A stretch of 64,000 bases of DNA, from positions 746,964 to 810,963 of the forward strand of contig JADJQN010000001.1 of the NCBI GenBank assembly GCA_016712745.1, written 5' to 3'. This document shows positions 20,483 to 59,110 of this stretch, piece by piece. The notes beneath the pieces are model-generated. The model was not told the origin of the DNA, did not search any database, and saw only the letters and a list, made by a program, of their open reading frames with translations. The position numbers and the translations under genes were made by a program. The stretch comes from Sandaracinaceae bacterium (GTDB lineage: Bacteria > Myxococcota_A > Polyangia > Polyangiales > JADJQN01). Every line of letters begins with the position of its first letter. The stretch's first letter is position 1.

Positions 20483-21325
20483 TTAGAAGCCCGTGAACAT
20501 GTAGGCGACGCCGAGATTGAACTGCGTCGAGGTGCCGGTGGAGTTGCCGAGTTCCCACGGAGTTACGCGATGCATGACGTCGAGCGAGACAAGCAACCAT
20601 TCGATGGGACGGAAATCCAGGCGCGCTCCGGCCTCGAGCCACAGCCAGTGCCCCCCCTCGGACAGCAGGCCCAGTGGGCCAAGCAGCGGATCGATCGCAA
20701 AGCGCGGGCTCACCGAGAGCATCGGCAAGAACGAATAGTTAAGCGAGAGGCCGAGCGGCATACCGATCCACGTGGAATCGATTTCGCCCGCGGGCGTATT
20801 GCCTGACCACGACTCCCACAGCACGCCAAGGAAGAGTCCAAGCTCCATGTTCGGCGCGAGATCCCAAAAGACGAATGAAGAGCGCAAGTCGAGCAAGAAG
20901 TAGCTCACGCCGCCTTCATTGAAATCGAGGCTGCCAATCGAACCGCTCGCGGCGCTCCCCCAGCCGAGAGTCATCGATGTCTTCGTTCCCGCCGCAGGCG
21001 GAACAACTTGATACGAATATGAGTACGTATCGCCGGCTTGCGCGCCTGAACGCACAGCTCGGTCCTGAGCCTCCATGCGAGCGTTGTGCGCATTACCGGC
21101 TGTACCAAGAGCTGCAAGCAGCATGCCCGTCGTGTCGTACAGCGTAACGGTGTTGATGCGCGCAAACCCGACGCGCGTCTGTTGCGTGGTCGGCGTTTCC
21201 GAGAATGTTGAGGACTGTGGTCCCATCGTGGAGCGCGCAAAGCCCTGGCCGACTCCGATGCCGCATCCCCCCAATAAGAGACCACACCCCACCGCCAATA
21301 GCGGCGCCCACCCACGTGTATTCAT
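20483..21325 (-). CDS. putative outer-membrane beta-barrel lipoprotein
   Basis: Signal and lipobox MNTRGWAPLLAVGCGLLLGGC, alternating amphipathic strands, and a C-terminal ...GVAYMFTGF ending in Phe as in OMP beta-barrels. The internal ATG at 21325 is preferred. Confidence 0.55.
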   Translation of the reverse strand: MNTRGWAPLLAVGCGLLLGGCGIGVGQGFARSTMGPQSSTFSETPTTQQTRVGFARINTVTLYDTTGMLLAALGTAGNAHNARMEAQDRAVRSGAQAGDTYSYSYQVVPPAAGTKTSMTLGWGSAASGSIGSLDFNEGGVSYFLLDLRSSFVFWDLAPNMELGLFLGVLWESWSGNTPAGEIDSTWIGMPLGLSLNYSFLPMLSVSPRFAIDPLLGPLGLLSEGGHWLWLEAGARLDFRPIEWLLVSLDVMHRVTPWELGNSTGTSTQFNLGVAYMFTGF

Positions 21326-21393
21326 GCGGAGGAAATACACGAGGTCGCGCTTCCGTGACAAAGAAAAGCCAACGCCGTGCTAGTTCTGCCGCC

Positions 21394-22017
21394 ATGCGAA
21401 ACGTGATCTGCGGGGATGCGGGCGCTTATCTCAGGTCGCACGACACGCCAACGGATGCGTCGTTCGTCACTTCATTACCAGACGTTTCGGAGCTACGCGG
21501 ACAAACGCTGGACGCCTGGCGCGCATGGTTCATCGACACGGTCGCACTCGTCGCAGCCAAGTCTGCGGCAAACGGAGTCGCGATCTTTTTCCAAACCGAT
21601 GTGTTCCGAAATGGCCAATGGATCGACAAGAGTTATCTCTGTCATCAAGGGGCCGAACGCGCGGGCGCGCGCTTACTCTGGCACAAGATTGTGTGCCGAG
21701 TCCCCGCGGGCAGCGTGGCCGATGGCCGCCCCGGTTACGCACACATGCTCTGCTTCGCGCGCGAGCTCCCGATGACGAGCGGCTTCACGCCGGACGTCAT
21801 CCCCGATCTTGGTTCGATGGATTGGTCAAAGGCGATGGGCCGTAACGCATGCGTCGCAGCATGTGAATGGATCCGTGATCACACCGAGACGCGAACCATC
21901 ATCGATCCATTTTGCGGAACGGGGACCGTGCTCGCGGTCGCCAACGAGCTTGGCCTCGAGGCGCTGGGCATTGAAATCGATGAAGCCCGCGCCGAGCGCG
22001 CACGCCGGAAAAAGTAA
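21394..22017 (+). CDS. beta-class N4/N6 DNA-methyltransferase-like protein with a degenerate catalytic motif
   Basis: The N-terminal region VICGDAGAYLRSHDTPTDASFVTSLPD sits where motif IV (xSPPY) is expected. The C-terminal SAM motif I is IIDPFCGTGTVLAVANELG..LGIEID. ATG 21394 is preferred. Confidence 0.6.
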   Translation: MRNVICGDAGAYLRSHDTPTDASFVTSLPDVSELRGQTLDAWRAWFIDTVALVAAKSAANGVAIFFQTDVFRNGQWIDKSYLCHQGAERAGARLLWHKIVCRVPAGSVADGRPGYAHMLCFARELPMTSGFTPDVIPDLGSMDWSKAMGRNACVAACEWIRDHTETRTIIDPFCGTGTVLAVANELGLEALGIEIDEARAERARRKK

Positions 22018-43989: not shown

Positions 43990-45176
43990 AACGCTTCGAG
44001 CGCGTTGACGTAGGGCGCGCACCCGTCCGTGCTGCAGCCCACGTCGAGGCGAACGTAGATGCGTTCGGCTTCATCGAGCGCGAAGCGAATGCCGCCGCCG
44101 AGACTCATCTTCAGCTCCGTGGCGCGAAACTCGGCAATGGTAGGCGCGACGCCCCCAATACCTGCGAAGAAGACCAGGCCGAAGCGCCAGACAACGGGCA
44201 TGATTCGCCACTCGACTTGGGCTGCGAGGTAATCGTTGTCGCGATAGCGCCCCATATACGAGCCTCGCATGCGTGCGTTGCCGCCCAGCAAGGAGAGCTG
44301 ATCGAAGGGGACATCTCCCATGTTGAAGTCCGCATAAAGCTGCATCGCCAGCACGTGATGCGGCGCGAGTTGTACGTACTGACGTAGGTCGATGTTTATG
44401 TGCGTAAAGTGGAAACGACTCCCAAGAAAACCCGGGTACGTAATCGCGAACGCTTGGTGAAAGGCGCCCGTGTGCGCAGACTGAAGATTGTCGCGTGAGT
44501 CCCAGACGACGCTCAATCCCAGACCCGAACGCACACCGCCCTCGACGCCGCGTGTCCCCGCAAGCAAACCGGTCGGATTTACGTCGCGAACCTGTGAGAG
44601 CTGAAACTCTTGCCTGACACCGACCATCAACGGTCCCCACACGCGCGTGCGAAAATCCATGAAGTCCCAGAACGAGTGCATCGTGTACAGCTCTTCGTTC
44701 GCCTCATTGGTATTGGGCCCGACGCCGTAGAAATAGTCGGGCATCAATCGATACGCCACCTGCCCCGTGATGGAATGACGCTCAAAGAGCCACCAGCGAT
44801 CGTGCTCGCTGAGCTCGCCATCTTCTAAGCCGCGCAGTACGCGGCGACTCTCCGCACGCGTCAGCGAGGGGCCAAACCAGAATGTCGGAAAGAGATCGAC
44901 AAGCGCCTGATTGCGAAACGTGTACAGGGCATCCGCCGCCAAGTACGAGGGTCTCGCCTCCACCGGCGCCTCGCCGAGGCGAAAGTAGTGAACGCCGAAT
45001 CCGCCAAACGCCGCGCTCGTTTCCGGCGCGTAACTAAATATCGGGAAGCCCGTCGTCGAGGACGTGGCACAGCCATCCCCGCCCCGCGGGCCGTGGCATT
45101 CCTGCTGGGCCGAAGCCACCCGGGGTAGCAGAGCGATGAAAAGCATCATTCCAAGATAAGCGGCGAGAGAGCGCAT
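43986..45176 (-). CDS. Omp85/bacterial surface antigen (D15) family beta-barrel protein
   Basis: Signal peptide MRSLAAYLGMMLFIALLPRVASA. The C-terminal barrel has LGGNARMRGSYMGRYRDNDY..AQVEWR...FFAGIGGV and ends in ...ALEAF. The stop region overlaps the MltD-like stop. Confidence 0.75.
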   Translation of the reverse strand: MRSLAAYLGMMLFIALLPRVASAQQECHGPRGGDGCATSSTTGFPIFSYAPETSAAFGGFGVHYFRLGEAPVEARPSYLAADALYTFRNQALVDLFPTFWFGPSLTRAESRRVLRGLEDGELSEHDRWWLFERHSITGQVAYRLMPDYFYGVGPNTNEANEELYTMHSFWDFMDFRTRVWGPLMVGVRQEFQLSQVRDVNPTGLLAGTRGVEGGVRSGLGLSVVWDSRDNLQSAHTGAFHQAFAITYPGFLGSRFHFTHINIDLRQYVQLAPHHVLAMQLYADFNMGDVPFDQLSLLGGNARMRGSYMGRYRDNDYLAAQVEWRIMPVVWRFGLVFFAGIGGVAPTIAEFRATELKMSLGGGIRFALDEAERIYVRLDVGCSTDGCAPYVNALEAF

Positions 45177-45339
45177 GAAGTCTCCACAACGCTCGGTGCA
45201 ACGTGCGTACCAGGCGGATTTGCGGGGAATTGGGCTGCTCACGGGACTATTGTCTACACACGCAGACTGCGTTCCATGGATGCGTGGCAAAAGGATGCAG
45301 TCGCCTATCACGCAGGCAACGAATGTGTAAGCTCTTCGC

Positions 45340-46578
45340 GTGCTCACAATTGAAGAAGCGATCGCTCGCATCTTGAGCGCGTGCCGAACGACTGAGGTTG
45401 CGAACGTCGGGTTGCACGACGCGCTCGGACTGTGCTTGGCCGAGGACGTTGTTGCTCCCTACGGCCTGCCCGAATTCGCAAATAGCGTAATGGACGGCTA
45501 CGCCGCCTGTGCGGCCGACCTCGCGGGCGCGAGCGCTGCCACCGAAAAGGCGCTCCCACTGATTGGGGAATCGCGAGCCGGCGCGACGCCAGCGGCGCTC
45601 ACGCCCGGCACGACGATGCGCATCTTTACCGGCGCGCCAATCCCGCAAGGTGCTGACGCAGTTGTAATGCAGGAAGACGTCCGCGTCGCAAATCAACACG
45701 TGCATTTCAAAGACGCGCCGCGCTCGCTCGCATTCGTCCGCATGCAGGGCAGCGATGTGGCGCAGGGGGCGACCGTATTGCGTGCGGGCGCGATGGTGCA
45801 CGCCGGCGAGATCGGTCTGCTCGCAAGCTTGGGTTTTTCGCGCGTACCCGTGCACAAGCGACCTCGCGTGGCGATTCTGTCTACGGGCGACGAGCTTCGC
45901 GACGTTGAATCAGAGCGGCGCCCGTTCACGGTAGTCAACAGCAACGCGTACGCCCTCGCTGCGCTAGTGCGCGAAGCGGATGCCGAGCCGTGGGTGCTTC
46001 CGCGAGTAGCCGATGACGCAGAAGCTATCGCCGAACAGATTCGCATCGGTCTCAGTGCGGATCTGCTGCTCTCCTCGGGCGGTGTGTCCGTGGGCGACTA
46101 CGACATGGTGCAAGACGCGTACAAACGCGCGCACGTCTCGCTTGATTTCTGGCGTGTCGCGATGAAGCCAGGAAAGCCTCTCATGTTTGGAAAAGGCGGC
46201 GCCGACGGTCGCACGCCGGTGCTGGGTCTACCCGGCAATCCCGCCAGTGCGATGGTCACGTTTGAGCTTTTCGCTCGGCCGGCGATTCGAACCATGCTTG
46301 GCACCGCCACGCCGATGCGGCCGCGCGTGCTCGTTGAACTGACGCACTCGCACTCGCACGCCGAAGGGCGCGTAGAACTGGCGCGCGCATCGCTTGATCT
46401 GGGCGATCCCTACCTTCGCGCGACGCTGCGCGAGAATCAGACGTCGGGTGCGCTTTCGTCGATGGTGGGCACTGACGCGCTGGTTATCCTTCCTGCCGAG
46501 GACAAATCCTTCCAGGAGGGCCAGATCCTCGAGGCGCTGATGATACGGCCACCAAACTCCGCGCAATTTCGGCGTTAA
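45340..46578 (+). CDS. moeA: molybdopterin molybdotransferase
   Basis: 412 aa. N-terminal sequence is L.EA...IL....P.FANSVMDGYA, with a central MoCF-binding domain (RVAILSTGDEL, SSGGVSVGDYD) and PGNPASAMVTFE. Confidence 0.9.
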   Translation: MLTIEEAIARILSACRTTEVANVGLHDALGLCLAEDVVAPYGLPEFANSVMDGYAACAADLAGASAATEKALPLIGESRAGATPAALTPGTTMRIFTGAPIPQGADAVVMQEDVRVANQHVHFKDAPRSLAFVRMQGSDVAQGATVLRAGAMVHAGEIGLLASLGFSRVPVHKRPRVAILSTGDELRDVESERRPFTVVNSNAYALAALVREADAEPWVLPRVADDAEAIAEQIRIGLSADLLLSSGGVSVGDYDMVQDAYKRAHVSLDFWRVAMKPGKPLMFGKGGADGRTPVLGLPGNPASAMVTFELFARPAIRTMLGTATPMRPRVLVELTHSHSHAEGRVELARASLDLGDPYLRATLRENQTSGALSSMVGTDALVILPAEDKSFQEGQILEALMIRPPNSAQFRR

Positions 46579-46715
46579 TTCTACCGAGCGCCCGCTAATC
46601 TCTTGCTCGACGAGCCCAAGGAGCCAGGTACACTCGTGTCGAAAGGCATGCGCCGGGAAACTTCTTGGTTTCCCATACGTCTATTAGGCGCAGGACCCGT
46701 ATTCAGCCTTTTCCA

Positions 46716-48785
46716 ATGACCGACCTCCACAAGCTCCTACGACCCCTCCATGCCGTGAAGCGACGCGTGCGCGTCCAGCGTGCGCTCGACATCGCAACGA
46801 CGTTGGGCCTGGCCGGTCTGGGCTCACTCGCGGTGGTCATCGCTGTCATGAAAGTCGGCGCGATGGATGCGGCCCATGCCCGCGTCTGGATGGCTGTGGC
46901 CGTCTCTCTGCCGGTCGTCGGCGCACTGGTTGGCGCGCTTTTGCCCGTGAAGGAATTGCACGCAGCGCAGCTTCTTGACCGTTCGCATCGCCTTGCGGAT
47001 CGGATTGCGAGCGCATTGCAGTTTGGTCAGGTTCCCGCCGCCGAACAAACACCCTTCATGGTCGCGTCGATCGCCGATGCGATAGCGCATGCCGACGAGC
47101 TTAGCCCGAGGCGCGCCCTGCCCTTGCGCGTGCCGCGCGATTTGGTCGGGTGCGTAGGATTGGTCGCTGCTGTTGTTGCAGTCTCGCTCGTGGAAGTGCG
47201 ACACCGCGTGCGCGTGCCTGTGGTCACGCGAATCACTCCGCTCGTCATGCATCCAGACGATATCGACGCATTCCAAAACGGACTCGATGCGCTGATGGCG
47301 CAGCAGGGGCTTGACGAGGGCGTTCGTGATACGGCGCGCCAATTCAACCAACTAATGGAAGACCTGGCAGCGCAGCGATTGGATCGCACCGAAGCCTTGC
47401 GAAGGTTGCAGCAGGTATCTGAGAACATCGACGGCGCTCGGCGCGCCGATGCCGACCAAATGCGCGAATCGCTGCAACAACTCTCGCAGGATCTGCAGCG
47501 CGCGCAATCCACGGAGGCGGCGGCGCAAGCGCTTCACGACGGCGACGCCGCTCGCGCTTCGCAGGAAATGCAGCGTCTTGCCGAGATGCTGCGCGAAAAT
47601 CCACCCAGTCGCGCCGAGCTCGAGCGTCTGCGTGAAGCGATGCGTCGCGCTGCTGAGCGCCAAAGCCCTGACTCACGCGCGGAGTTGCAACGGCAGCGGG
47701 AAGAAATGAACCGCCTTCTGCAGCGGCAGCGCGAGCAGAAGACTGGCGAGACTGAAGCCGAACGTCGCCTACTTCAGCGGCGGCGCCGTGAACTTGAGCG
47801 TCTGGAACGGCAAGTCGCGCAAGAGACCGAGCAGCGTCGTCAGCTCGAACGTCTGCAGCGCGATATGCAGCAGGCGGCCGAGCATTTGAATCAGGGGGCC
47901 AATCCCGAAGAAGCAGCGGACGATATCGAGCGTTCCGCTGAAGAGCTCAACCGTGTCGCGCAAGAGCAGATGTCTGAAGAGGAACGGCAACGCTTGCAGG
48001 AGCGAGTGGCGGAGTTGCGCGAGATGATTCGCCGGCAGCGCGAGCAACAGGCGCAAAACGGACAGCAAGGCCAGCAAGGCCAGCAAGGCCAGCAAGGCCA
48101 GCAAGGCCAGCAGGGTCAACAGGGTCAAGGGCAGTCGCGCATGGACCGGTTCGTTCTTCGTGCAAATGGACAGGGGCAGCAGGCGCGCATTGTGGGCCCT
48201 GGCCAACAAGGTCAGGGACAGCAGGGCCAAGGCCAGCAAGGTCAGGGGCAGCAGGGTCAAGGGCAGCAGGGCCAAGGTCAGGGACAGCAGGGTCAAGGTC
48301 AGCAGGGTCAGGGACAGGGCGGGCAGCAAGGGCAAGCCGGGCAAGGAGCTGGGCAACCGGGCCAAGGACAGGGACAAGGACCGCTCACGCTGCAAATGGG
48401 CGGTCAAGGCGGAAACGCGACGCTGGAGATCCCGGGCGCGGGCCAGGGACGCGGCCAGCAAGGCCAGGGACAAGGACAGGGTTCCATGCCCGGCCCGGGC
48501 GCTGGCACCGGCCACAACGATGCGACTCTCGACGACCCGACCCACTTGCAAAGCAACCGACAGAACTCACGCGTTGAAGGCGACCAGAACGGTCAAGGCC
48601 CGACTCGCAGCGAAGTCATTCTTGGCGCGGCCGAGCGCGGCTTTGCCAATCGCGCGTACGAACGCGTCTACGTTGATTACGAGCACCACGCCGAAGAGGT
48701 GCTTGAGCAGGACGAAATTCCCGGCGGCTATCGTTTTTACGTGCGCCGCTATTTTCAACTCATCCGCCCACGCGAGGAACAGTAA
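46716..48785 (+). CDS. two-TM membrane protein with long coiled coil and Gln/Gly-rich low-complexity region (DUF4175/TIGR02302-like)
   Basis: Two N-terminal TM helices, an about 250-aa charged coiled coil (ELERLREAMRRAAER...), (QGQ)n tracts, and a conserved-looking C-terminus IPGGYRFYVRRYFQLIRP. ATG 46716 is preferred because a hairpin (46654-46673) overlaps the TTG at 46665. Confidence 0.6.
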   Translation: MTDLHKLLRPLHAVKRRVRVQRALDIATTLGLAGLGSLAVVIAVMKVGAMDAAHARVWMAVAVSLPVVGALVGALLPVKELHAAQLLDRSHRLADRIASALQFGQVPAAEQTPFMVASIADAIAHADELSPRRALPLRVPRDLVGCVGLVAAVVAVSLVEVRHRVRVPVVTRITPLVMHPDDIDAFQNGLDALMAQQGLDEGVRDTARQFNQLMEDLAAQRLDRTEALRRLQQVSENIDGARRADADQMRESLQQLSQDLQRAQSTEAAAQALHDGDAARASQEMQRLAEMLRENPPSRAELERLREAMRRAAERQSPDSRAELQRQREEMNRLLQRQREQKTGETEAERRLLQRRRRELERLERQVAQETEQRRQLERLQRDMQQAAEHLNQGANPEEAADDIERSAEELNRVAQEQMSEEERQRLQERVAELREMIRRQREQQAQNGQQGQQGQQGQQGQQGQQGQQGQGQSRMDRFVLRANGQGQQARIVGPGQQGQGQQGQGQQGQGQQGQGQQGQGQGQQGQGQQGQGQGGQQGQAGQGAGQPGQGQGQGPLTLQMGGQGGNATLEIPGAGQGRGQQGQGQGQGSMPGPGAGTGHNDATLDDPTHLQSNRQNSRVEGDQNGQGPTRSEVILGAAERGFANRAYERVYVDYEHHAEEVLEQDEIPGGYRFYVRRYFQLIRPREEQ
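48060..48485 (+). repeat. coding microsatellite-like Gln/Gly tracts
   Basis: Five perfect CAGCAAGGC units lie at 48063-48107, followed by degenerate CAG/CAA-GGN repeats in three blocks up to about 48485. They encode QQGQQGQ... and QGQGQQGQG... Confidence 0.9.
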
Positions 48786-48789
48786 AGCC

Positions 48790-49791
48790 ATGAGCGATCC
48801 GAACTCAGTCGCAGCGTCCGTTGAAGCCTTTCGCAAAGATGTCGCCACGCTTCGTGCAGAAGTCGGAAAGATGATCGTTGGCCAGGGCGATATCGTCGAC
48901 GGAGTCATCACCTGCCTCATCGCGGGCGGGCATGCGCTACTCGAAGGCGTGCCGGGTCTTGGCAAGACGATGCTCGTCCGGTCCATGGCCGACGCGCTCT
49001 CGCTCAACTTTTCGCGCGTTCAGTTCACGCCTGACTTGATGCCCGCCGACATTCTCGGCACCACGGTCATCAACGAGGACCACACCGGCCACAAAGAGTT
49101 CGAGTTTCGCCCGGGCCCCATTTTCGCAAACATCGTCCTCGCGGACGAAGTGAACCGCGCAACACCTAAGACGCAGAGCGCGCTTCTCGAAGTCATGCAG
49201 GAGCACTCGATCACGGTCGCGAAGAAAACTCATAAGCTCGAGGAGCCGTTCTTCGTGCTAGCGACCCAAAACCCGCTCGAGATGGAAGGCACCTACCCCC
49301 TGCCCGAAGCACAGCTCGACCGTTTTCTCTTCAAGTTGCACGTGGAGTTCCCGTCACGCGATGAGCTTCACAGCATCCTCGATCGCACGACAGGGACCGA
49401 ACATCCCACTGTACGGCCGGTACTCGATCAACCGCGCATCCTCGCGATGAAGCGCTTGGCGCGCGATGTTGCTGTGGCACGCCACGTCCAGGATTACGTG
49501 ATTCGCGTACTTGAAGCCACGCATGCCGACCGCGCCGGTGCGCCGGACATCGTCAAGCAGTTCGTTCGCTTTGGCGCGAGCCCGCGTGGAGCGCAAGCGA
49601 TTCTGATCGCTGCGAAGATTCAGGCGCTCTTTGACGGACGTTTCAGCGCGTCGGTGGACGACGTACGCAAGGTCGCGAAGCAGGCTTTGCGCCATCGCAT
49701 GATTCTCAACTTCGAAGGAGAAGCCGAGGGAATCAAGACCGACCAAGTTCTCGACACCGTACTTTCATCCGTCACGGAAGCCGCGAAGTAA
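48790..49791 (+). CDS. MoxR-family AAA+ ATPase
   Basis: Walker A region LLEGVPGLGKTMLV, FSRVQFTPDLMPADILGT, Walker B ANIVLADEVNRATPKTQSALLE, ATQNPLEMEGTYPLPEAQLDRF. The ATG lies 4 nt after the upstream stop. The long N-terminal extension in the ORF track is read-through of the repeat region. Confidence 0.9.
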   Translation: MSDPNSVAASVEAFRKDVATLRAEVGKMIVGQGDIVDGVITCLIAGGHALLEGVPGLGKTMLVRSMADALSLNFSRVQFTPDLMPADILGTTVINEDHTGHKEFEFRPGPIFANIVLADEVNRATPKTQSALLEVMQEHSITVAKKTHKLEEPFFVLATQNPLEMEGTYPLPEAQLDRFLFKLHVEFPSRDELHSILDRTTGTEHPTVRPVLDQPRILAMKRLARDVAVARHVQDYVIRVLEATHADRAGAPDIVKQFVRFGASPRGAQAILIAAKIQALFDGRFSASVDDVRKVAKQALRHRMILNFEGEAEGIKTDQVLDTVLSSVTEAAK

Positions 49792-49796
49792 GAACC

Positions 49797-50735
49797 GTGT
49801 TCGACTGGCTCAGGCGCGGTGCATCGACGACGGCGAAAAGCGTCGCTTCGAAAGAAGACGATGACCTTTTCGGCGACGACTTTCAGGCGCGCCTCGAGTA
49901 CCTCGCGATTGTCGCGCGTCGTATTTATTCCGGCCGCATGCGCGCGGAACGCCGGTCGAAGAAGACCGGAAGCGGCATCGAGTTTGCCGACCATCGCGAG
50001 TACTCCCCGGGCGATGACTTTCGTTATCTCGACTGGAGCGTATACGGCCGAACCGGCCGGCTGCTCCTGCGCCTCTTCGAAGAAGAGGAAGACCTTTCGG
50101 TGTACGTGCTCATCGATTGCTCGCGAAGCATGCAGTTCGGCAAGCCGAAAAAGTTCGACTACGCACGCCGCATCGCCGCTGGCCTCGCCTACGTTGCACT
50201 CGCGAACCTTGATCGCGTTTCGATGGCGAGCTTCGCGGATGCCGTGACCGGGCGCCTTGCACCGACGCGCGGCAAAAACCGGATCTTCAAAGTCTTCGAG
50301 TTCTTGCGAAATATAGAGCCCGAGGGGCGAACCGGCATCGCCGACGCGATGAAGACGTTCGTTGCGCAGAATAAACGTCGCGGCGTCGCAATATTGATTA
50401 GCGACTTCTACGATCCCGCGGGTTTCGAAGCCGGCATCAATACGCTGCGCTACCACAAGTTCGAGACCTACGTGATTCAAGTCTTCGATCCCGTCGAAGT
50501 GCGCCCGGCGCTGCATGGCGATGTGCAGCTTGTCGATAACGAAACTGGCGAAGCGCGCGAAATCACAGTGACGCCGCGCATTCTCGAGCGCTACGCCGCG
50601 GCGCACGCGAGCTATCGCAAGCAAATCGAAGATTTCTGCGCAAAGAAGCAAGTTACTTATTTCTCCATCGAGACGAGCACGCCGTTTGACGATGCGATTC
50701 TGCGAATACTTCGTCGCGGCGGGATGCTGGGTTAG
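49797..50735 (+). CDS. DUF58 domain protein
   Basis: FADHREYSPGDDFRYLDWSVYGRTGRLLLRLFEEEEDLSVYVLIDCSRSM is the DUF58 signature. The GTG start is 5 nt after the MoxR stop. Confidence 0.85.
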   Translation: MFDWLRRGASTTAKSVASKEDDDLFGDDFQARLEYLAIVARRIYSGRMRAERRSKKTGSGIEFADHREYSPGDDFRYLDWSVYGRTGRLLLRLFEEEEDLSVYVLIDCSRSMQFGKPKKFDYARRIAAGLAYVALANLDRVSMASFADAVTGRLAPTRGKNRIFKVFEFLRNIEPEGRTGIADAMKTFVAQNKRRGVAILISDFYDPAGFEAGINTLRYHKFETYVIQVFDPVEVRPALHGDVQLVDNETGEAREITVTPRILERYAAAHASYRKQIEDFCAKKQVTYFSIETSTPFDDAILRILRRGGMLG

Positions 50736-50741
50736 CGCGCG

Positions 50742-52622
50742 ATGGAATTCACGGCACTTTCGTTGACGCAGGTTCTCACCGTGCTCGGCGCATTTGGCGC
50801 AGGCGTGGTGGTTTTCTACCTGCTCAAACTGCGCCGCCGTCAGGTGCCTGTGCCCTTCGTCCGCCTGTGGGAGCAGATACTCGCCGAGAAGCAAAGCACG
50901 CGCCTCTTCTCGCAGATCAAGCGCCTCCTTTCACTGCTCATCGCCCTACTCTTCGTGGCCTTGGTGGCGTTTGCACTGGGCGACCCGCGCACAAAAGGCG
51001 CGCACGATGCGGGCCGAAGTCTCGTCGTGCTCGTGGATGCCAGTACGTCGATGCAGGCGACGGACATGCGTCCCACCCGACTCGAGCGAGCGTTCGAGGA
51101 AACGCGACGCATCATCGACGGATTAGGTCCCTCCGATCGCATGCTCATCGCACAAATGGATGCGACCACCACGCCGGTGAGTCCGATGACTGATGACACG
51201 CGCGTGCTGCGCGAGTCGCTGACGCATGTCGCGCCGACCGATCTGACGACAAATTTCGCCCGCGCGCTCCGTTTTGCGCTCGACGTTCTTCGCGACAAAG
51301 AGCGTGCTGAGATTATCGTCGTCTCCGACGGGCATTTACCCGAGGCGCGTGACGAGGAAGGCCTCGTGAGCGCGCGCGGCGCGAAGCTGAGCTACGTGGC
51401 GATTGGCAGGCATCACCGAAACGTTTCAATCAGTGCATTCAGTGTGCGCCGCTACCCGCTCGACAAGAGCCGCAGCGAAGTGCTCGTCGAACTTCTCAAC
51501 TCGTCAACTGATCCCGAGGCTATAGAGCTGACGTTGCTCGGTGACGGGCAGCCTATCGACGTACAGCGATTGCAGCTCGCAGCAGGTGAGCGAACGAGCC
51601 GTTTCTTTGAAAACATTTCGGGCGCCGATCGCACGCTCGAAGCGCGCATCACGTTGGCGGACGGCAAGCACGATGATTTGCCGGCGGACGATCGCGCGTT
51701 CGCGCGCTTGCCCGAGCGACGTCGCGCGCGTGTCATGTCCGTTTCCGAGGGCAACCGCTACATCGAGGCGGCCCTCTTGCTCGACGAGTATCTCGACGTG
51801 ACCGAAGTGAGCCCCGCCGAATACCCCGCGCCGGGTCACTTCGACGTCGTCATTTTTGATGGTTTCGTGCCGCCGAGTCCGCCAACCACGAGCGCGGTCT
51901 ACCTGAATCCGCTTCCCCCGACTGGGGTGCAGGGCCCGCTCGAAGTGCTCGGCGTTATTGAACGACCCTTCTTCGAGCAAATCGATCGACGCCACCCGCT
52001 CGTGCGATGGACAGCTCTGCGCGATGTGAATATCGCGAGCGCTTTGCAAGTGCGCCTTGCGCCAGGCGACCGTCCGGTCGCAGGAGACTCGCGCGGCCCT
52101 CTGCTCGTCGCCGGCACGCGAAGTGGCAAGAAGTTTGTCGCGCTTACTTTTGACGTGCGGCGTAGCGACCTTCCCCTACGTCCCGCGTGGCCGCTCTTGC
52201 TCTTAAACTCAATTGACTGGTTCGTCTCGGAAGACGCCGCCTATCTATCCAGCTACATGGTTGGAGAAACGTGGCACGTCGGAGTTCCGGCGGGGCACGC
52301 CACGGCAACTCTGCAGGCGCCCGACGGGACGTCGCGCGAAGTCCCGGTTGTGGATGGACGCGCCGTGTGCGGGGGCACGCGCGCAGGCTTCTATCACGTG
52401 CGTACCGGCACTGAGGACGAGCTCATCGCAGTCAATCTCGACGCGAACGCGGAGAGCGACATCACGCCCGTCCCGCGCCTCACCGTCCAAGGCCAAGCCG
52501 CGGGCCATTTCACACCCGGCACCATTGGCGTGCGTCGTGAGATTTGGATCTACCTGGTCATCGCCGCACTTTTGCTGATGGCCATCGAGTGGTTTTCGTA
52601 CCATCGGCGGTGGACCGTATGA
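50742..52622 (+). CDS. BatA-like protein (aerotolerance-regulator N-terminal double-TM domain plus VWA domain)
   Basis: The N-terminus LTVLGAFGAGVVVFYLLKLRRRQVPVPFVRLWEQ is BatA_N-type. A VWA domain has a MIDAS-like VDASTSM, and there is a C-terminal TM anchor. Confidence 0.8.
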   Translation: MEFTALSLTQVLTVLGAFGAGVVVFYLLKLRRRQVPVPFVRLWEQILAEKQSTRLFSQIKRLLSLLIALLFVALVAFALGDPRTKGAHDAGRSLVVLVDASTSMQATDMRPTRLERAFEETRRIIDGLGPSDRMLIAQMDATTTPVSPMTDDTRVLRESLTHVAPTDLTTNFARALRFALDVLRDKERAEIIVVSDGHLPEARDEEGLVSARGAKLSYVAIGRHHRNVSISAFSVRRYPLDKSRSEVLVELLNSSTDPEAIELTLLGDGQPIDVQRLQLAAGERTSRFFENISGADRTLEARITLADGKHDDLPADDRAFARLPERRRARVMSVSEGNRYIEAALLLDEYLDVTEVSPAEYPAPGHFDVVIFDGFVPPSPPTTSAVYLNPLPPTGVQGPLEVLGVIERPFFEQIDRRHPLVRWTALRDVNIASALQVRLAPGDRPVAGDSRGPLLVAGTRSGKKFVALTFDVRRSDLPLRPAWPLLLLNSIDWFVSEDAAYLSSYMVGETWHVGVPAGHATATLQAPDGTSREVPVVDGRAVCGGTRAGFYHVRTGTEDELIAVNLDANAESDITPVPRLTVQGQAAGHFTPGTIGVRREIWIYLVIAALLLMAIEWFSYHRRWTV

Positions 52623-55408
52623 CTCGCCGGGTCTTTGTGCTCTCCGGAAGTTTGGTGCTCGCTGCAACAGCGGCCTGCGTCTACGGCGTGCATTCGCTCA
52701 TCCGCGTAATCCCCCGCGACATGCTTTGGCACGGGGAGCACTACTCGATTCTGTCGCCGCAGATGCTCTACATTGTGGCGGTCGCGCCGTTGCTTTTCTG
52801 GGTGGCTAGCCGCTCGCTCGCGGATTTGCCGCGCATTCAGCGTTTTATCGCCACGTTCATTCGCGTACTGATATTCGCGTTTCTGGCGCTTGCATTGTCG
52901 CGGCCGGCACGCACCACCGATTCGCAGCGCGTCAGCACAGTCTATCTGGTTGACGTTTCGGACTCGGTCACGAATGAGTCACTGGACGACGCGCGCCAGA
53001 GCGTACAGCAAGCATGGACGGCTCGGGGCGAAAACGATGTGCAGCTCGTTACCTTCGCGCGCCATCCGCGGGTCGTGCCCTTAGACGCCGACACGAACGA
53101 AGTCCCTGCAATCACGCGGCCGAGCGCAGGAACGGGCGCCGGAAGCAGTGCAGGCGACCAAAGCAGCGCAATGACGGCGACGCAGGGATCGGGAACGAAC
53201 TTGCAAGCGGCCCTTCAGCTTGCCTATGGGTTGTATCCAGCCGGCTATTTGCGACGCGCCGTGATCATTTCTGACGGTGGTCAGACCGACGGTGATCTAC
53301 TCGCGGAGGCGTCGCGCGCGCGCGCATTCGGCACGCGCCTCTTTTATACGCCCTACCGCCGCGGCGCTCCGCGCGAGGTCGCGTTGCGAGCTCTCACAGT
53401 GCCCGATCGCATCGAAGTGGGCGAACCGTTCTTCGTACGCGCCCGCGTCTTTTCGAGCACGGACACCCGCGCGCGCGTACGCCTCTATCAAGGCGAGACG
53501 CTGAACGGCCTCGATAGCATTCGCGAAGTCGACTTGCATCGCGGCGATACTGACCTTGAGTTTCGGTCGGTGGTCCGCGTTGCTGGGCCCATCACCTATA
53601 CGCTCGACATCGAACCCACCGGCGCCGACCGATTCCGCGCCAACAACCGCTTCGCGGTCAGCACCATTGTCCCCGGTCGCCCGACCGTACTCTACGTGGA
53701 GAGCGACCCCAGTCGCGCACTTTACCTGGCGCGTGCGCTCACGGCGGGCGACTACGAGGTGGAAGTGCGCAGCCCACGCGAGATCCCGCAAAGCTTGCGC
53801 GAGCTCGAGCGTTTCGATTTCTTCATCCTGTCGGATGTCGCGGCCGATCAGGTTTCGCTTACGCAAATGGACATGATCGAACGCTACGTCCGCGACCTGG
53901 GCGGCGGCTTTATCATGGCGGGCGGCGAGGCCGGCTTCGGCCTTGGTGGTTGGCAGCACACGCGCATCGAGCAGCTTCTGCCCGTACGCATGGACGCTGA
54001 GAGACGCCGCGATCAGCCGTCGCTCGCGCTCGCGCTCGTGATCGACAAGAGCGGATCGATGTCGGGTACGAAGATGGAGCTCGCCAAGGACGCCGCGAAA
54101 GCCACGGCCGAGTTGTTGGGCGCGGAAGACTATATCGAGGTTGTCGGCTTCGACTCATCGCCCACCCGCGTCGTGCGCATGCAGAGCGCCGCCAATCGCA
54201 TACGCATCCTGACCGACATCGGTCGGCTCACGGCGAATGGTGGCACCGCGATTCTTCCTGCGCTCGATATGGCGTTTCAGGATTTGTCCGTCACGCGCGC
54301 GCGTGTGAAGCACGTTATTTTACTTACGGATGGGCAGACCCAGGAGACCGGCTTCGAGACGTTGGTCCAAGCGATGCGCGCAGAAGGCATCACGCTGTCC
54401 ACGGTGGGCCTCGGCGGCGACGTGAACCGTGCACTTCTAACCGCCGCAGCAAACCTGGGCGGGGGGCGCGCCTACTTCACAACCGACCCGCACAACGTGC
54501 CGCGCATCTTCATGCGTGAGACATCGACCGTCCAACGGTCGAGTGCCGTGGAGGAGTACTTTCAGCCGCAAATCGTGACGCAAGCGGACTTTCTGCGCGG
54601 ACTCGACGTGGGCCGTGCTCCGTTCTTGCACGGTTACGTCGCGACCCAGGCCAAGCCCGATCCCGTGCAGGTGATTCTGCAAAGCGAGCTTGGCGAACCG
54701 ATCCTTGCACGCTGGCGCGTGGGCTTGGGATGGGCCCTTGCGTGGACGAGCGACGTGAAGAATCGCTGGGCCGTCGAGTGGCTGAGATGGCCGGGCTTCC
54801 AGCCGTTCTGGTCGCAACTGGTGCGCGAGCATATGCGTCAGCGCAGACGCCAAACATTGGATATGCGTGCGGAGATTCTCGACGGCGAAGTACGTGTCGC
54901 CGTAGACGCCATAGGACAGGATGATCAATTCCTCAACGGACTCGATAGCGAGCTCACCATCGATGGTCCGATGGGCGCCCGCGCGGGCCGCGGCGCGGGG
55001 GATGCGGCTATCCACGCAACTCATCCCCTTCGGCAGGTGGCCCCAGGAAGATACGAAGCGCGCTTTCCGCTCGACCGTTACGGATCGTTTGTAATGACCG
55101 CAACACACAGGCGCGACGGCCGGCCCGTCGCCGAGAGCATTGCGCAAATCTCCAACCCCTACCCGCGTGAGTATGGAACCCTCGAGCCCGACGAAACGTT
55201 GATGCGCCGCGCGGCGAGCGTAACCGGCGGTTTCGGCAACCCCACGCCTCAGCAAGTGTTCGACCCGAACGGAGAAAAAATCCGGCGCCATGAAGACCTC
55301 TGGTCGAAGTTTCTCTACGCCGCGCTCGTCGCGTTCCTGATCGACCTCCTGCTTCGCCGCATCCGGCTTTTCGACCGCAAGTTCAAAGCTGCGCCCTCGC
55401 GCCGCTAA
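52619..55408 (+). CDS. membrane protein with two VWA domains and a glutamine-amidotransferase-like (DUF1355-type) domain
   Basis: The ATG overlaps the upstream stop (ATGA). N-terminal TM helices are followed by VWA 1 (YLVDVSDSV), a GATase1-like middle region (FDFFILSDV...GGGFIMAGGEAGFG), and VWA 2 (LVIDKSGSMSG...ILLTDGQT). There is a C-terminal TM anchor. Confidence 0.75.
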   Translation: MTRRVFVLSGSLVLAATAACVYGVHSLIRVIPRDMLWHGEHYSILSPQMLYIVAVAPLLFWVASRSLADLPRIQRFIATFIRVLIFAFLALALSRPARTTDSQRVSTVYLVDVSDSVTNESLDDARQSVQQAWTARGENDVQLVTFARHPRVVPLDADTNEVPAITRPSAGTGAGSSAGDQSSAMTATQGSGTNLQAALQLAYGLYPAGYLRRAVIISDGGQTDGDLLAEASRARAFGTRLFYTPYRRGAPREVALRALTVPDRIEVGEPFFVRARVFSSTDTRARVRLYQGETLNGLDSIREVDLHRGDTDLEFRSVVRVAGPITYTLDIEPTGADRFRANNRFAVSTIVPGRPTVLYVESDPSRALYLARALTAGDYEVEVRSPREIPQSLRELERFDFFILSDVAADQVSLTQMDMIERYVRDLGGGFIMAGGEAGFGLGGWQHTRIEQLLPVRMDAERRRDQPSLALALVIDKSGSMSGTKMELAKDAAKATAELLGAEDYIEVVGFDSSPTRVVRMQSAANRIRILTDIGRLTANGGTAILPALDMAFQDLSVTRARVKHVILLTDGQTQETGFETLVQAMRAEGITLSTVGLGGDVNRALLTAAANLGGGRAYFTTDPHNVPRIFMRETSTVQRSSAVEEYFQPQIVTQADFLRGLDVGRAPFLHGYVATQAKPDPVQVILQSELGEPILARWRVGLGWALAWTSDVKNRWAVEWLRWPGFQPFWSQLVREHMRQRRRQTLDMRAEILDGEVRVAVDAIGQDDQFLNGLDSELTIDGPMGARAGRGAGDAAIHATHPLRQVAPGRYEARFPLDRYGSFVMTATHRRDGRPVAESIAQISNPYPREYGTLEPDETLMRRAASVTGGFGNPTPQQVFDPNGEKIRRHEDLWSKFLYAALVAFLIDLLLRRIRLFDRKFKAAPSRR

Positions 55409-55486
55409 AGTCGGTCGCTTAGCAACGCCGCCACACCTACGTCGCCCGAAATCGATTGTCTTATCAATCGTTTTCGAAGGAATCGC

Positions 55487-55514
55487 TTGACGTGGCGGGC
55501 TCCGTCGTTATGCT
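55487..55514 (+). promoter_or_regulatory. sigma70-like promoter candidate for dksA
   Basis: TTGACG (55487-55492), 16-nt spacer, TATGCT (55509-55514), about 35 nt upstream of the dksA ATG. A G-rich SD (GGGGGGG) lies 8 nt upstream of the ATG. Confidence 0.4.
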
Positions 55515-55547
55515 CTTCTGCTCTCGTTTTTTGGGGGGGTCAGACCA

Positions 55548-55910
55548 ATGAAGAAAACCGAACTCAAGCGGTTCAAGAAAATCCTCGAGGAAAAGCGCGA
55601 GGCGCTCGTCAAGAACGCCCAGCAGACGATGACCGAGGATATGACCCTCGACACCAACGACCTGCCGGACGAAATGGACCTCGCGTCCAGCGAGTACATC
55701 CAGTCCTTCACGTTCCGCCTGCGCGGACGCGAGAAGTCGTTCCTCGACAAGATTGACCGCGCCCTTCGCAAGATCGAAGACGGCTCGTTCGGTACCTGCG
55801 AAAGCTGCGAAGAAGAGATCTCAGTGAAGCGCCTCGAAGCGCGCCCAGAGACCAGCCTCTGCATCCGCTGCAAAGAAGACCAAGAGCGTCAGGAACGCGA
55901 CTTCGGCTGA
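55548..55910 (+). CDS. dksA: DksA/TraR-family C4 zinc-finger transcription factor
   Basis: 120 aa with a coiled-coil N-terminal half and a CxxC-N17-CxxC finger (CESCEEEISVKRLEARPETSLCIRC). Confidence 0.9.
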   Translation: MKKTELKRFKKILEEKREALVKNAQQTMTEDMTLDTNDLPDEMDLASSEYIQSFTFRLRGREKSFLDKIDRALRKIEDGSFGTCESCEEEISVKRLEARPETSLCIRCKEDQERQERDFG

Positions 55911-55957
55911 TCACGCATCGCGGGCCGTGCCATTGGTTCATTTTCGCCCAACCCGGC

Positions 55958-57814
55958 TTATGCGGCTGCGTTGGGCGATTTCGTATCACCGGTCGAGCTC
56001 GTGTGATTCGCGCTCTGCGGAAGCACCATCGTAAAGATGGTTCCGTCCTGACTGCTGGCGACGTCGATCGTGCCTTGATGATCGTCGACGACCTTCTTCA
56101 CAATGGCCAGACCAAGGCCGGTGCCGCCTTCCTTGCCATGAGTGGCGAAGCTTTGAAAAAGGCGGCCGCGAATTTCCTCGGCAATACCCGGCCCGTTATC
56201 GCTGAAGGTGAGAATCACGGCTCCGTCTGCAGTGCGTCGCGAAGCCGACATCGTGAACTCGCCCCCACGTTTGCCCAACGCTTCGGCGGCATTGCGCGCG
56301 AGGTTGTAGACCGCGCGCTGCATCTTCTGTTGATCGAAATAGACGACGCCTTTGTCGGCTAGCTCCAACTTGACCGTGATGCCCCGATCGCGGAATTGCT
56401 TCTCAAGCTGCTCGACGATTTCACCGAAGAATTTGTGCAAATAGACTTTGCTCACGAAGAGCGTCGTTTCGCCGCGCGCGAACGCTAAAATTTCGCGAGT
56501 CATTGAATCGACCAATTGAATCTGACGCAACGCGGCCTGCCCAAATGTATGCCGCGTCGCATCCTCAGGCTCGTTCATCAAGAGTTGCAGGTAGCCTGAG
56601 ATCACCGTCATCGGCGTTTTTAGATCATGAATCACGCCCGACAAGAGTTGCCCGATAGTCGACAAGCGGTCTTCGCGCGCTTGCTTCTCACGCGACAGAG
56701 CCAAGCCAATCGCGTTGGAAACCTGGCCGGCGATCACGCTCGCAAACTTCACATCGTCGTCGGTAAAAGCTTCCTTGCCCTTTGACTTGTTGAAGAGCTC
56801 GATCGCGCCGACGCCATCTTCCCAGCGGAGCGGCACACACATCATCGAACGCGGGTGGTAGCCCACGCGGTCTGCAAGCTCACGGGAATACCGAGGATCT
56901 TTTCGCACATCGGTGACGATCTGCGGCAAACCATGCTGCGCAACCCAACCTGAAATTCCATGTCCCGCTTCGATGTGCATCTTCTTAACTTCGTCCGGCA
57001 CGCCGCCAATCGCTGCGCGAAAGTGCAGATCTCGATTATCCCCCTCCAACATCAGTATCGCGCCGGCTTCTGCATCGACGGCGCGCACCGCACCCATGAG
57101 TACTCCGTCGAGCATCTCGTCGAGCTTCGACGCTTCCGCCGCCACTTGCATGATCTCGAAGAGCACGTCGAGCTCGCGAATCTTCAACTCGAGGGCGCTC
57201 TTCGCCTCGAGGAGCTCCATGTTCTTGCCGACGATGGACAAGAATAATTTGGAATTCTCGATGGACACTGCCGCCTGCGAAGCGAGCGCGGACAGTAGCC
57301 CTTCGTCCTCCTTCGAGAAGTAGCCGTTGCATTTATTGAGCACTTGCACGACCCCGATGGTGCGGCCGTGGTGATTCTTCATGGGCGTGCAAAGAATCGA
57401 CTGGGTTCGGTAGCCCGTGCGTCGATCCCACTCCGAATCGAAACGGGAATCTTGATAGGCGTCCTTGATGTTAAGCGCCTTGCCGGTTTTCGCCACCCAA
57501 CCCGCCAGGCCCTCCCCTAGCTTTACGCGGATCTCGTGGACCTCTTCGCCCTGCGCAAACTTCGACCAGAGCTCCCCCGTGTGCTCGTCGAGCAGATACA
57601 GAGTCGAGCGCTCTGCATCCATTACGCGGGAGGTGCGCTCAAGAACAAGAGTCAAAAGCTCGTTCAGATCCAGCGTCGACCCAAGTGCCACGCTGATATC
57701 CTGGAGCGCGCGCAGCTTCTCGTGCTCACGCGCCAGCGCAGCGCGCAAGTCCGCCGGTGGGACGGAAGGAGGCTTTGAGTCAGTTGCCATGCGCTCGGAC
57801 AAAAACTGTCCCAT
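55958..57814 (-). CDS. cytoplasmic GAF-GAF sensor histidine kinase
   Basis: Two GAF domains, an H-box (GVIHDLKTPMTVISGYLQLL), and HATPase boxes (NLARNAAEA, DNGPGI, GTGLGLAIV). ATG 57814 is preferred over TTG 57889, which would overlap the divergent GT39 gene. Confidence 0.85.
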   Translation of the reverse strand: MGQFLSERMATDSKPPSVPPADLRAALAREHEKLRALQDISVALGSTLDLNELLTLVLERTSRVMDAERSTLYLLDEHTGELWSKFAQGEEVHEIRVKLGEGLAGWVAKTGKALNIKDAYQDSRFDSEWDRRTGYRTQSILCTPMKNHHGRTIGVVQVLNKCNGYFSKEDEGLLSALASQAAVSIENSKLFLSIVGKNMELLEAKSALELKIRELDVLFEIMQVAAEASKLDEMLDGVLMGAVRAVDAEAGAILMLEGDNRDLHFRAAIGGVPDEVKKMHIEAGHGISGWVAQHGLPQIVTDVRKDPRYSRELADRVGYHPRSMMCVPLRWEDGVGAIELFNKSKGKEAFTDDDVKFASVIAGQVSNAIGLALSREKQAREDRLSTIGQLLSGVIHDLKTPMTVISGYLQLLMNEPEDATRHTFGQAALRQIQLVDSMTREILAFARGETTLFVSKVYLHKFFGEIVEQLEKQFRDRGITVKLELADKGVVYFDQQKMQRAVYNLARNAAEALGKRGGEFTMSASRRTADGAVILTFSDNGPGIAEEIRGRLFQSFATHGKEGGTGLGLAIVKKVVDDHQGTIDVASSQDGTIFTMVLPQSANHTSSTGDTKSPNAAA

Positions 57815-57868
57815 GAACGAGCGAATCCGCGCAATCGCCTTCGCGAATGCTACAAAGCGCCCGCACTC

Positions 57869-59110
57869 ATGAACGCGCGGCGCGGGCAAAAGACACTGTG
57901 GCGGCGGGATCTTGGGCTGATCTTCGTGCTAGCGCTCGCTCCGCGCTTGCTATGTGCTGTGGCTCTGCCGGTGCGGCCGACGTGGGATGGCGTGATCTAC
58001 CTGCGAGCGGCCGAGCAACTTGCGCGCGGAGAAGGTTACACCCAACGTGCGCTACGCGCCGACGCACCAGCGCGCGCCAATGCTTACTATCCAGTAGGAT
58101 TTCCGGCGACACTCGCTGTCGTGCGTGTGGCCGGAGACGGCGCGCGTACGGATCTAATCCTACAAAGTCTTTTTGGCGCACTCACTGCGTGCGCGACCTA
58201 TCTGCTGGCTCGACGCTACGGCGCGCGACGTCGGGCGCGCACCGCAGCTTTGCTAATCGCGTTTTGGCCGACTGGCATCCTGCTTTCGGCGACGTGGATG
58301 AGCGAGGCGCTCTTCACATGCGCTCTCTGCTTCGCTTTGCTGCCGCTTGCGTGGGCGAAGCTTCGCCATGCTGCGCTTGGCTTTGCGTTCACGTGCATCG
58401 GCTTAGGCGTTTGCGCCTACGTGCGCCCCATCGCATTGATTATCGCCGGCACGCTGGCCGTGGCGCTGGTGGCACGCGACGTGCGCAGGCGCTGGCACTT
58501 CGCGTTGATAGCGCTCGTATGCACGGCAGCCCCCCTTCTGCCCTGGACTCTGCGCAACGCGCGTGTCCTCGACGCCCCAGCGCTCGTATCCACAAACGGC
58601 GGAACGAACCTCCTGCTGGGCACGGTGGGTGACGGCCGTTTCACTCGCATCCCTGCCGCGATCGACTGCCCCGACGGATTACGCGAGGTCGAGCGCGATC
58701 GCTGCCGTTCCGACCACGCCCTCACGCGCATTCGAGCAAAACCGCTAGCGTTCGTCGCACGTGCGGCGATGAAGCTCGGAGACACCTTCGCGTACGAGTC
58801 CGCAACGGCCCTCGAGCTTGGCGTATCGTTGGCACCTCGCGGAGCACCAATCCCGCACTGGGCCTTGGCACTCGCCGCGTTGAGCAGCATCTATTATATC
58901 TTGCTGCTCGCCGCGGCCGTGTACGCCGCCTGGATGTCTCGCACTACAATCCCGGCAAGCTTACGCGTTTTGGTGCTGGGACCGGTCGTGGCGACCGCTG
59001 CGCTGCACGCAGTGTCACTCGGGGGTGACCGATACCACCTGCCACTCGTCCCGCTATTCGCAGCGATCGCCGTCTTTGCGCTAAGGGCTGGGCGCAGCAG
59101 CTCGGTCTGA
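57869..59110 (+). CDS. GT-C glycosyltransferase, family 39/PMT_2 (ArnT-like)
   Basis: About 11 TM helices. The first periplasmic loop reads WDGVIYLRAAEQLARGEGY. The size and topology are typical of ArnT/PMT_2 enzymes. Confidence 0.65.
   Translation: MNARRGQKTLWRRDLGLIFVLALAPRLLCAVALPVRPTWDGVIYLRAAEQLARGEGYTQRALRADAPARANAYYPVGFPATLAVVRVAGDGARTDLILQSLFGALTACATYLLARRYGARRRARTAALLIAFWPTGILLSATWMSEALFTCALCFALLPLAWAKLRHAALGFAFTCIGLGVCAYVRPIALIIAGTLAVALVARDVRRRWHFALIALVCTAAPLLPWTLRNARVLDAPALVSTNGGTNLLLGTVGDGRFTRIPAAIDCPDGLREVERDRCRSDHALTRIRAKPLAFVARAAMKLGDTFAYESATALELGVSLAPRGAPIPHWALALAALSSIYYILLLAAAVYAAWMSRTTIPASLRVLVLGPVVATAALHAVSLGGDRYHLPLVPLFAAIAVFALRAGRSSSV

Follow-up and report, generated by a model that had tools for sequence, protein, structure and literature searches.

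A conserved MoxR-DUF58-VWA gene module of Polyangia led by a predicted three-transmembrane protein family

The 64,000-nucleotide stretch of DNA analysed here (hereafter the window) comes from a Sandaracinaceae bacterium and covers positions 746,964 to 810,963 of contig JADJQN010000001.1 in assembly GCA_016712745.1. At positions 46716-55408 it contains five co-directional genes on the plus strand, which we call G1 to G5. They encode a long membrane protein (G1), a MoxR-family AAA+ ATPase (G2), a DUF58 protein (G3) and two membrane proteins that carry VWA domains (G4 and G5). The core of this architecture is already known, and the locus is otherwise an ordinary example of the MoxR-DUF58-VWA (Bat-like) class. 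The cluster is set apart by two of its proteins. G1 appears from its sequence to represent an undescribed family with three transmembrane (TM) segments, known to date from Polyangia alone, and its gene comes first in the operon. G5, with its two VWA domains, has an architecture that together with G1 makes the cluster a lineage-specific variant of the class. The initial annotation of this DNA had placed the cluster in the correct class and had claimed no novelty for its architecture, a judgement that we uphold; it had missed both the lineage-specific nature of G1 and the paralogy of G4 and G5.

Results

Gene order and conservation

The five genes were delimited from a list of open reading frames (ORFs) and from the letters at their junctions. 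G1 (46716-48785) ends in TAA and is followed after 4 nucleotides by the ATG of G2 (48790-49791), which also ends in TAA, 5 nucleotides before the GTG of G3 (49797-50735). The TAG stop of G3 lies 6 nucleotides before the ATG of G4 (50742-52622), and the TGA stop of G4 shares an ATGA with the ATG start of G5 (52619-55408). These junctions confirm the order, the gaps and the overlap that had been described initially. The NCBI annotation starts G5 at a GTG 9 nucleotides upstream, giving a protein of 932 residues that is 100% identical and keeps the overlap with G4. No Rfam family was found in 45000-58000, and scans for promoter and terminator patterns gave results at background level, with no terminator-like excess within the cluster.

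G2 to G5 are identical to MBK8169379-MBK8169382 from a Sandaracinaceae metagenome-assembled genome (MAG), G2 being MBK8169379.1. They are also present in a collection of 15 billion proteins, in which the exact 689-residue sequence of G1 was not found. G1 may have been called elsewhere from a different start (the TTG at 46665 would give a protein of 706 residues), or may never have been called.

The arrangement is conserved among relatives of the bacterium. Scanning a single genome for each GTDB species gave 185 relatives, and 80 loci were taken for comparison. The six-frame ORFs of these loci were searched with the five window proteins, and gene order was counted where at least 6.7 kb of DNA was available 3' of G1. 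G1-G2-G3-G4-G5 are colinear and on one strand in 51 of 55 Polyangia loci; a 52nd locus has the same arrangement and is riddled with frameshifts. The genes on either side of the cluster are wholly different among the window, Sandaracinus amylolyticus, a metagenomic Polyangia contig and Labilithrix luteola. Since the order is kept where the flanks differ, G1 to G5 form a module in its own right, and the MoeA gene upstream of it in the window lies outside this module. Gene spacing and synteny together indicate that the module is a single compact operon.

Some loci depart from this pattern. A G1 homologue occurs by itself in three of them (L019 576-2585, L068 10001-11956 and L077 1-1032), with no MoxR, DUF58 or VWA genes upstream or in the available 3.7-7.7 kb downstream. 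In some lineages, then, G1 can be found without the operon, provided that these loci do not reflect breaks in assembly. G1 to G4 are present in L079 and L080 (about 15700-21800), one of which is labelled as a Myxococcaceae MAG, and no G5 homologue was found there in the 6-10 kb downstream of G4.

The leading protein G1

G1 (46716-48785, plus strand) encodes a membrane protein of 689 residues that falls in no known family. The hydropathy profile contains three strongly hydrophobic segments (residues 26-44, 60-78 and 143-161), all of which are confident helices in the AlphaFold model. The initial annotation had described a two-TM protein with a coiled-coil and glutamine/glycine (Q/G)-rich composition; the composition holds, and the number of segments is three. 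Between TM2 and TM3 lies a conserved helical domain of 64 residues (79-142) with invariant D88, R89, H91, R96 and D121. AlphaFold models residues 1-160 with a predicted local distance difference test (pLDDT) score of 83-97, followed by helical segments over residues 180-450, disorder over 453-646 and three short helices over 631-683 at a pLDDT of about 75.

The long region after TM3 has two parts. Residues 181-455 form R/Q/E/A-rich helices of coiled-coil-like character, and residues 456-620, which are disordered, consist of 34% Gln and 31% Gly. Part of the Q/G-rich region is encoded by a perfect 9-nucleotide tandem repeat, CAGCAAGGC, present in 5.6 copies at 48063..48112 on the plus strand and translated as QQG repeats. 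Imperfect repeats of 15-36 nucleotides follow in the same coding region at 48194-48319. The length of the Q/G region varies widely among homologues, as seen from large indels in the alignment, and slippage may cause it to lengthen and shorten.

The signature of the family is the conserved C-terminal domain (residues ~621-689, ending in ...RGFANRAYERVYVDYEHHAEEVLEQDEIPGGYRFYVRRYFQLIRP, encoded at 48576..48782 on the plus strand). Nowhere is the protein better conserved than in these ~70 residues, which keep 60-70% identity even where the remainder has about 40%. When the C-terminal region of 99 residues was compared with 1.84 billion representative proteins, 890 clusters (at 50% identity) were matched at E ≤ 1e-3. 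The domain is found at the extreme C-terminus in all 150 matches listed, in proteins of about 600-840 residues or in fragments. The homologues of G1 come solely from Polyangia, namely from Sandaracinaceae, Polyangiaceae, Sorangium, Polyangium, Byssovorax and Labilithrix, and the closest among the G1 matches listed has 54% identity.

G1 has no match to a Pfam or NCBIfam model, even at E ≤ 1. Its sequence profile found only coiled-coil noise in the PDB, and a Foldseek search of the PDB with its model gave no match at E ≤ 0.001. The DUF4175/TIGR02302 family has N-terminal TM helices followed by a long Gln/Gly-rich low-complexity region, as in G1, and G1 had initially been suggested as a member. 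This identity was rejected by the Pfam and NCBIfam hidden Markov models (HMMs), both for the window protein and for its homologues. PF13779 (DUF4175) matched one of 63 G1 homologues, at 18.6 bits against a cutoff of 27.3 and in the coiled-coil region only. TIGR02302 matched none of 18, for which the sole recurrent NCBIfam matches were SMC/Rad50-type coiled-coil noise. A tblastn search of plasmid and chromid records with annotated DUF4175-type neighbours gave no match to G1 and one weak VWA match to G4.

The topology of G1 was considered from its charges. Averaged over the family, the number of lysines and arginines (K/R) is 5.7 before TM1, 1.9 in the 12-residue loop between TM1 and TM2, 3.1 before TM3 and 2.1 after it. 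These counts favour an orientation with the N-terminus inside and the C-terminus outside, and by the positive-inside rule the coiled-coil and Q/G-rich tail is probably periplasmic. If TM3 did not span the membrane, or if the whole topology were inverted, the tail would instead be cytoplasmic; it would then be a scaffold or a direct substrate of MoxR and DUF58, with G4 and G5 as separate partners. Such a location would suit the window protein, in which four of the 15 residues after TM3 are Arg, and a simple hydropathy threshold gives three TMs in only 48 of 63 family members. A highly charged helix of 270 residues followed by 170 residues of Q/G would also be unusual cargo for Sec. On the other hand, TM3 is the most hydrophobic of the three segments (Kyte-Doolittle 2.52), is conserved as hydrophobic and is a helix within a well-modelled domain (pLDDT 84-97); the family-wide K/R count falls across it, and the N-terminus is rich in K/R. 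We consider a cytoplasmic tail unlikely. Given the Arg-rich stretch, the periplasmic placement of the tail in this protein is based on the average over the family and on an N-terminus strongly enriched in K/R.

The cytoplasmic pair G2 and G3

HMM searches supported the domain calls made initially for the other four proteins, namely MoxR, DUF58, BatA_N with VWA, and double VWA with a GATase1-like domain. G2 (48790..49791, plus strand) matches AAA_3 at 3.4e-64 (215 bits, cutoff 27) and AAA_lid_2 at 3.8e-16 (59 bits). Its Walker motifs are intact, with Walker A (GVPGLGKT) at residue 53 and Walker B (IVLADE) at residue 115. An AAA_3 domain with its lid, Walker motifs, and DUF58 and VWA genes in the same operon are the features of MoxR proteins of the MRP subfamily, and all of them are found here. 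G3 (49797..50735, plus strand) is a VWA-like DUF58 protein (1.3e-42) with a VWA_2 match embedded in it, and its DxSxS motif (D107, S109 and S111) is invariant in 55 of 55 orthologues. Hydropathy finds no TM segment in G2 or G3, and both are predicted to be cytoplasmic. The initial statement that all four non-ATPase proteins are membrane-anchored thus applies to G1, G4 and G5, and not to G3.

G2 also has a secondary Pfam match to bpMoxR (1.6e-14, 54 bits), which is relevant to the MoxR-vWA conflict systems that Kaur et al. 2020 reportedly catalogued. If the cluster were a threat-sensing system of this kind, G1 would be a filamentous surface sensor and the MoxR and VWA proteins would be its relay. 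The combination of an anchor, a repetitive linker and a terminal domain in G1 is formally like that of the EsrA sensors in the actinobacterial Esr pathway (bioRxiv 10.64898/2026.09.08.750141). The bpMoxR match is nevertheless far below the 215 bits of AAA_3, and no beta-propeller, kinase, phosphatase, FHA or effector gene is present in or next to the cluster. PADLOC found no match for four of the proteins and only weak, P-loop-level matches for G2 (mad8 and REase_II, E 2e-4 to 5e-4). A diversifying sensor would not be expected to have its strongest conservation across families in the terminal domain, as G1 does, and the module lies among housekeeping genes with its order kept across the group. 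A role in conflict is, in our view, very unlikely.

The membrane VWA proteins G4 and G5

G4 (50742..52622, plus strand) has a BatA_N double-TM anchor (residues 10-28 and 62-80), a VWA domain (94-223), a further ~370 residues and a C-terminal TM (about 598-618). It matches Pfam BatA (PF07584) at 30.1 bits, against a gathering cutoff of 25.9, and VWA_2 at 1e-16. The BatA_N/TIGR02226 assignment that had been proposed for it stands in part: the Pfam BatA model passes, and the equivalent TIGR02226 model gives 16.2 bits, below its cutoff of 23.05. The metal ion-dependent adhesion site (MIDAS) motif of G4, DASTS (DxSxS), is invariant in 51 of 51 sequences.

G5 (52619..55408, plus strand) has three N-terminal TMs, two VWA domains, a GATase1-like domain and a C-terminal TM. 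VWA is matched at 6e-26 in two stretches, and GATase1_like (PF07090, formerly DUF1355) at 6.4e-11 (42.7 bits, cutoff 27), also in two stretches, which flank the second VWA. The AlphaFold model (mean pLDDT 77.8) comprises VWA1 (residues 96-245), a beta-sandwich (254-351), a Rossmann/GATase1-like domain (356-434), VWA2 (469-621 in the model, 469-630 as assigned overall), a second beta-sandwich (748-846) and the C-terminal TM (894-912). Residues 642-717 are poorly modelled and overlap the second GATase1_like match (649-740), which is of low confidence. Both MIDAS DxSxS motifs are invariant in 36 of 36 sequences, and VWA2 also keeps an invariant T543 and D571.

When family profiles are compared, residues 58-372 of G4 align with residues 72-404 of G5 with a probability of 97% (E 5.7e-11). 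The aligned stretch comprises the last N-terminal TM, the VWA domain and the beta-sandwich, and runs into the beginning of the Rossmann-like domain. By this comparison G4 and G5 are paralogues, each with predicted TM anchors at both ends, and together they have three VWA domains. Two proteins from metagenome assemblies, P0203 (1559 residues) and P0136 (1480 residues), are apparent fusions of G4 and G5 and were considered as evidence for physical coupling of the two. They were rejected, since the C-terminal ~50-100 residues of G4 are unaligned in both, and they look like frameshift or assembly artefacts.

The three VWA domains are predicted to be periplasmic, from the positive-inside rule and the published topology of a BatA-type protein. 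G4 has a short N-terminus free of K/R, a 33-residue loop with nine K/R between TM1 and TM2, and an HRRW tail; its large domain (514 residues, 81-594) lies between TM2 and the C-terminal TM. G5 begins with MTRR, has a domain of 799 residues (95-893) and ends in a 17-residue tail of which eight residues are K/R. In the BatA-type protein BB0173, the VWA domain has been shown experimentally to be exposed to the periplasm (PMC5700661).

A Foldseek search of the PDB with the G5 model gave VWA domains only. These include BatB of Bacteroides thetaiotaomicron (3ibs), an aerotolerance-related membrane protein of Bacteroides fragilis (4jdu), integrin I-domains and the vWFA domain of LapA. The last two, and the intact MIDAS motifs typical of adhesive VWA domains, would be in keeping with G4 and G5 being adhesins or parts of a surface or motility apparatus. 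The model for this would be Borrelia BB0172, which binds integrin and is reported to be surface-exposed (PMC5700661). Yet G4 and G5 are TM-anchored at both ends and have K/R-rich cytoplasmic tails, so they would be expected to stay in the inner membrane, where BB0173 has been shown to be. They have no outer-membrane targeting signal and no motility gene is found nearby, and we regard an adhesive role as highly improbable.

Neighbouring genes

Upstream, the cluster is flanked by the MoeA gene (45340-46578, plus strand) and, on the minus strand, by an ORF of 461 residues (43986-45371) with a weak match to the Omp85 superfamily (1.4e-7). Downstream are a DksA gene (55548-55910, plus strand), a GAF histidine kinase gene beyond it on the opposite strand, and an ORF for a PMT_2-type glycosyltransferase (57869-59110, plus strand, 2.5e-7). 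The Omp85-like and PMT_2-type ORFs are both envelope-related, and neither is kept beside the module in other genomes. The MoeA gene was considered as a pointer to a molybdenum client and was rejected, as the flanks are not kept in other genomes.

Relationship to known systems

MoxR hexamers engage a VWA adaptor and remodel the adaptor or its client, often for metal insertion. NorQ/NorD, RavA/ViaA and CbbQ/CbbO all pair a MoxR hexamer with a VWA/MIDAS adaptor, and this is the likely mode for G2 and G3. Metal insertion by the MoxR-type NorQ involves pulling and twisting NorD, its VWA partner; a finger of the VWA domain enters the pore of the hexamer, and ATP hydrolysis twists a linker (PMC13036017). 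Pairs of this type are soluble or peripheral two-component systems with known clients, whereas here there are three additional integral membrane partners.

The MRP subfamily of MoxR AAA+ ATPases, which have DUF58 and VWA partners, was defined in the classification of Snider and Houry, as far as it is summarised in PMC12067865 and PMC11834572. Like its members, the cluster has MoxR (AAA_3), DUF58 and membrane VWA genes in succession in one operon. It differs in that G1 rather than MoxR is in the leading position, in that there are no TPR proteins and in that the last protein has two VWA domains.

The Bat operon of Bacteroides and spirochaetes encodes BatI (MoxR), BatII (DUF58) and BatA-E. The window cluster shares with it the MoxR and DUF58 proteins, a BatA-type anchor with a MIDAS-containing VWA domain, the predicted periplasmic orientation and the folds matched in BatB-type structures. 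In length G4 and G5 exceed BatA and BatB two- to threefold, with a C-terminal TM and with beta-sandwich and GATase1-like domains as additions, and G1 has no Bat counterpart. No TPR, SH3 or BatD match, and hence no equivalent of BatC, BatD or BatE, was found in the five proteins or in the flanking genes.

The likeness to Bat invites a literal reading of the cluster as an aerotolerance or oxidative-stress operon, whose proteins would supply or protect periplasmic reducing power. The BatA match of G4 above its gathering score and the structural matches to BatB and to the aerotolerance-related protein of B. fragilis are consistent with this. The published evidence on the function of Bat-type operons is contradictory. 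Mutants of Riemerella in moxR and batA have altered survival of oxidative and heat stress, as well as virulence phenotypes (PMC11834572), but Leptospira biflexa from which all bat genes were deleted has no phenotype, including under oxidative stress (PMC3557215). The five proteins of the window lack the remaining Bat components, as noted above, and also lack a redox domain, which makes a literal aerotolerance role quite unlikely.

By analogy, the best functional precedent for a membrane-embedded version of the machinery is MxaRSACKL. In this system the insertion of Ca2+ into periplasmic methanol dehydrogenase needs every one of MxaR (MoxR), MxaS (DUF58) and MxaA, C, K and L (PMC12276312). As in the window, cytoplasmic MoxR and DUF58 proteins are combined with membrane-associated VWA proteins, which there act on a periplasmic target. 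The window differs in that no methanol dehydrogenase or other client gene is found among the MoeA, Omp85-like, DksA and GAF histidine kinase genes of the flanks.

A search with MoxR also led to a cmd-like operon in Sinorhizobium, which encodes MoxR, DUF58, a DUF4159 protein and a VWA-like membrane protein. Its MoxR is 47.5% identical to G2, and its DUF58 gene is likewise followed by genes for two large membrane proteins with double-TM N-terminal anchors; no G1-like gene is found there. Mutants in cmd of Rhizobium are reported to have envelope defects, according to a citation in PMC5700661. In Sinorhizobium meliloti Ak57 (L084 13684-15752) the fourth cmd-like gene is split into overlapping ORFs of 197 and 492 residues and has no entry in the gene table; a frameshift or pseudogene in this strain is the probable explanation. 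The record is labelled pSymB at 3.7 Mb and looks like a chromosome labelled as a plasmid.

Proposed mechanism

We give roughly even credence to the proposal that the cluster is an MRP-type chaperone machine of MoxR, DUF58 and membrane VWA proteins, like Bat, Cmd and MxaRSACKL, which acts on a client in the envelope. A hexamer of G2 with G3 as its adaptor would form the cytoplasmic motor. Its docking sites would be the cytoplasmic loops and tails of G4 and G5, which are short, together with the conserved domain of G1 that is predicted to lie in the cytoplasm. ATP hydrolysis would then act by way of the TM helices on the VWA/MIDAS domains of G4 and G5 in the periplasm, and these may hold or remodel an envelope client that depends on divalent cations and would be encoded outside the operon. 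The action on this client could be metal loading, or the assembly of a periplasmic or outer-membrane protein. G1, with its long helical and Q/G-rich tail and its conserved end domain, would provide a scaffold or tether in the periplasm. Of this scheme, the analysis shows the parts list, the predicted topology and the conservation described above; what we infer is the coupling and the client.

Several points weigh against a chaperone machine of this kind. To our knowledge, the path by which force or a signal would cross the membrane is unexplained in every system of this type, and we know of no experiment on any member from Polyangia. No client gene is linked to the cluster in the window. The Arg residues that follow TM3 in the window G1 are at odds with a periplasmic tail in this protein. 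G4 and G5 have no similarity at the level of BLAST to the membrane proteins of the Sinorhizobium cmd-like operon, so their equivalence with those of other operons is one of domains and architecture only. Finally, the Leptospira bat deletion had no phenotype (PMC3557215), and the role of the family may therefore be subtle or conditional.

A bolder extension of the chaperone machine would make G1 a tether that spans the periplasm. MoxR and DUF58 would grip its cytoplasmic domain, while the rod of ~270 residues, the Q/G linker and the end domain would reach the peptidoglycan or the outer membrane. Together with the MIDAS domains of G4 and G5 this would be an ATP-driven machine for transmitting force or signals across the envelope. 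We rate this as a long shot. If true, it would be previously undescribed and would parallel in function the TonB or Tol-Pal systems, which are proton-driven, with an AAA+ ATPase as its own source of power.

Significance

MoxR-DUF58-VWA operons are found in many phyla, and their role has been established only for the insertion of Ca2+ into methanol dehydrogenase. To this known class the present cluster adds a G1 family that leads the operon and enlarged G4 and G5 paralogues built from VWA, beta-sandwich and GATase1-like modules, with the second VWA of G5 placed between two GATase1-like matches. The G1 family is of considerable size, with about 890 clusters at 50% identity, and is covered by no Pfam or NCBIfam model. 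Cultivable relatives exist, including Sandaracinus amylolyticus, Sorangium and Labilithrix. In the Polyangia variant G1 is a conserved fifth partner of the MoxR, DUF58 and VWA proteins, and with its predicted cytoplasmic domain and long, probably extracytoplasmic tail it could offer a physical path through the membrane into the envelope.

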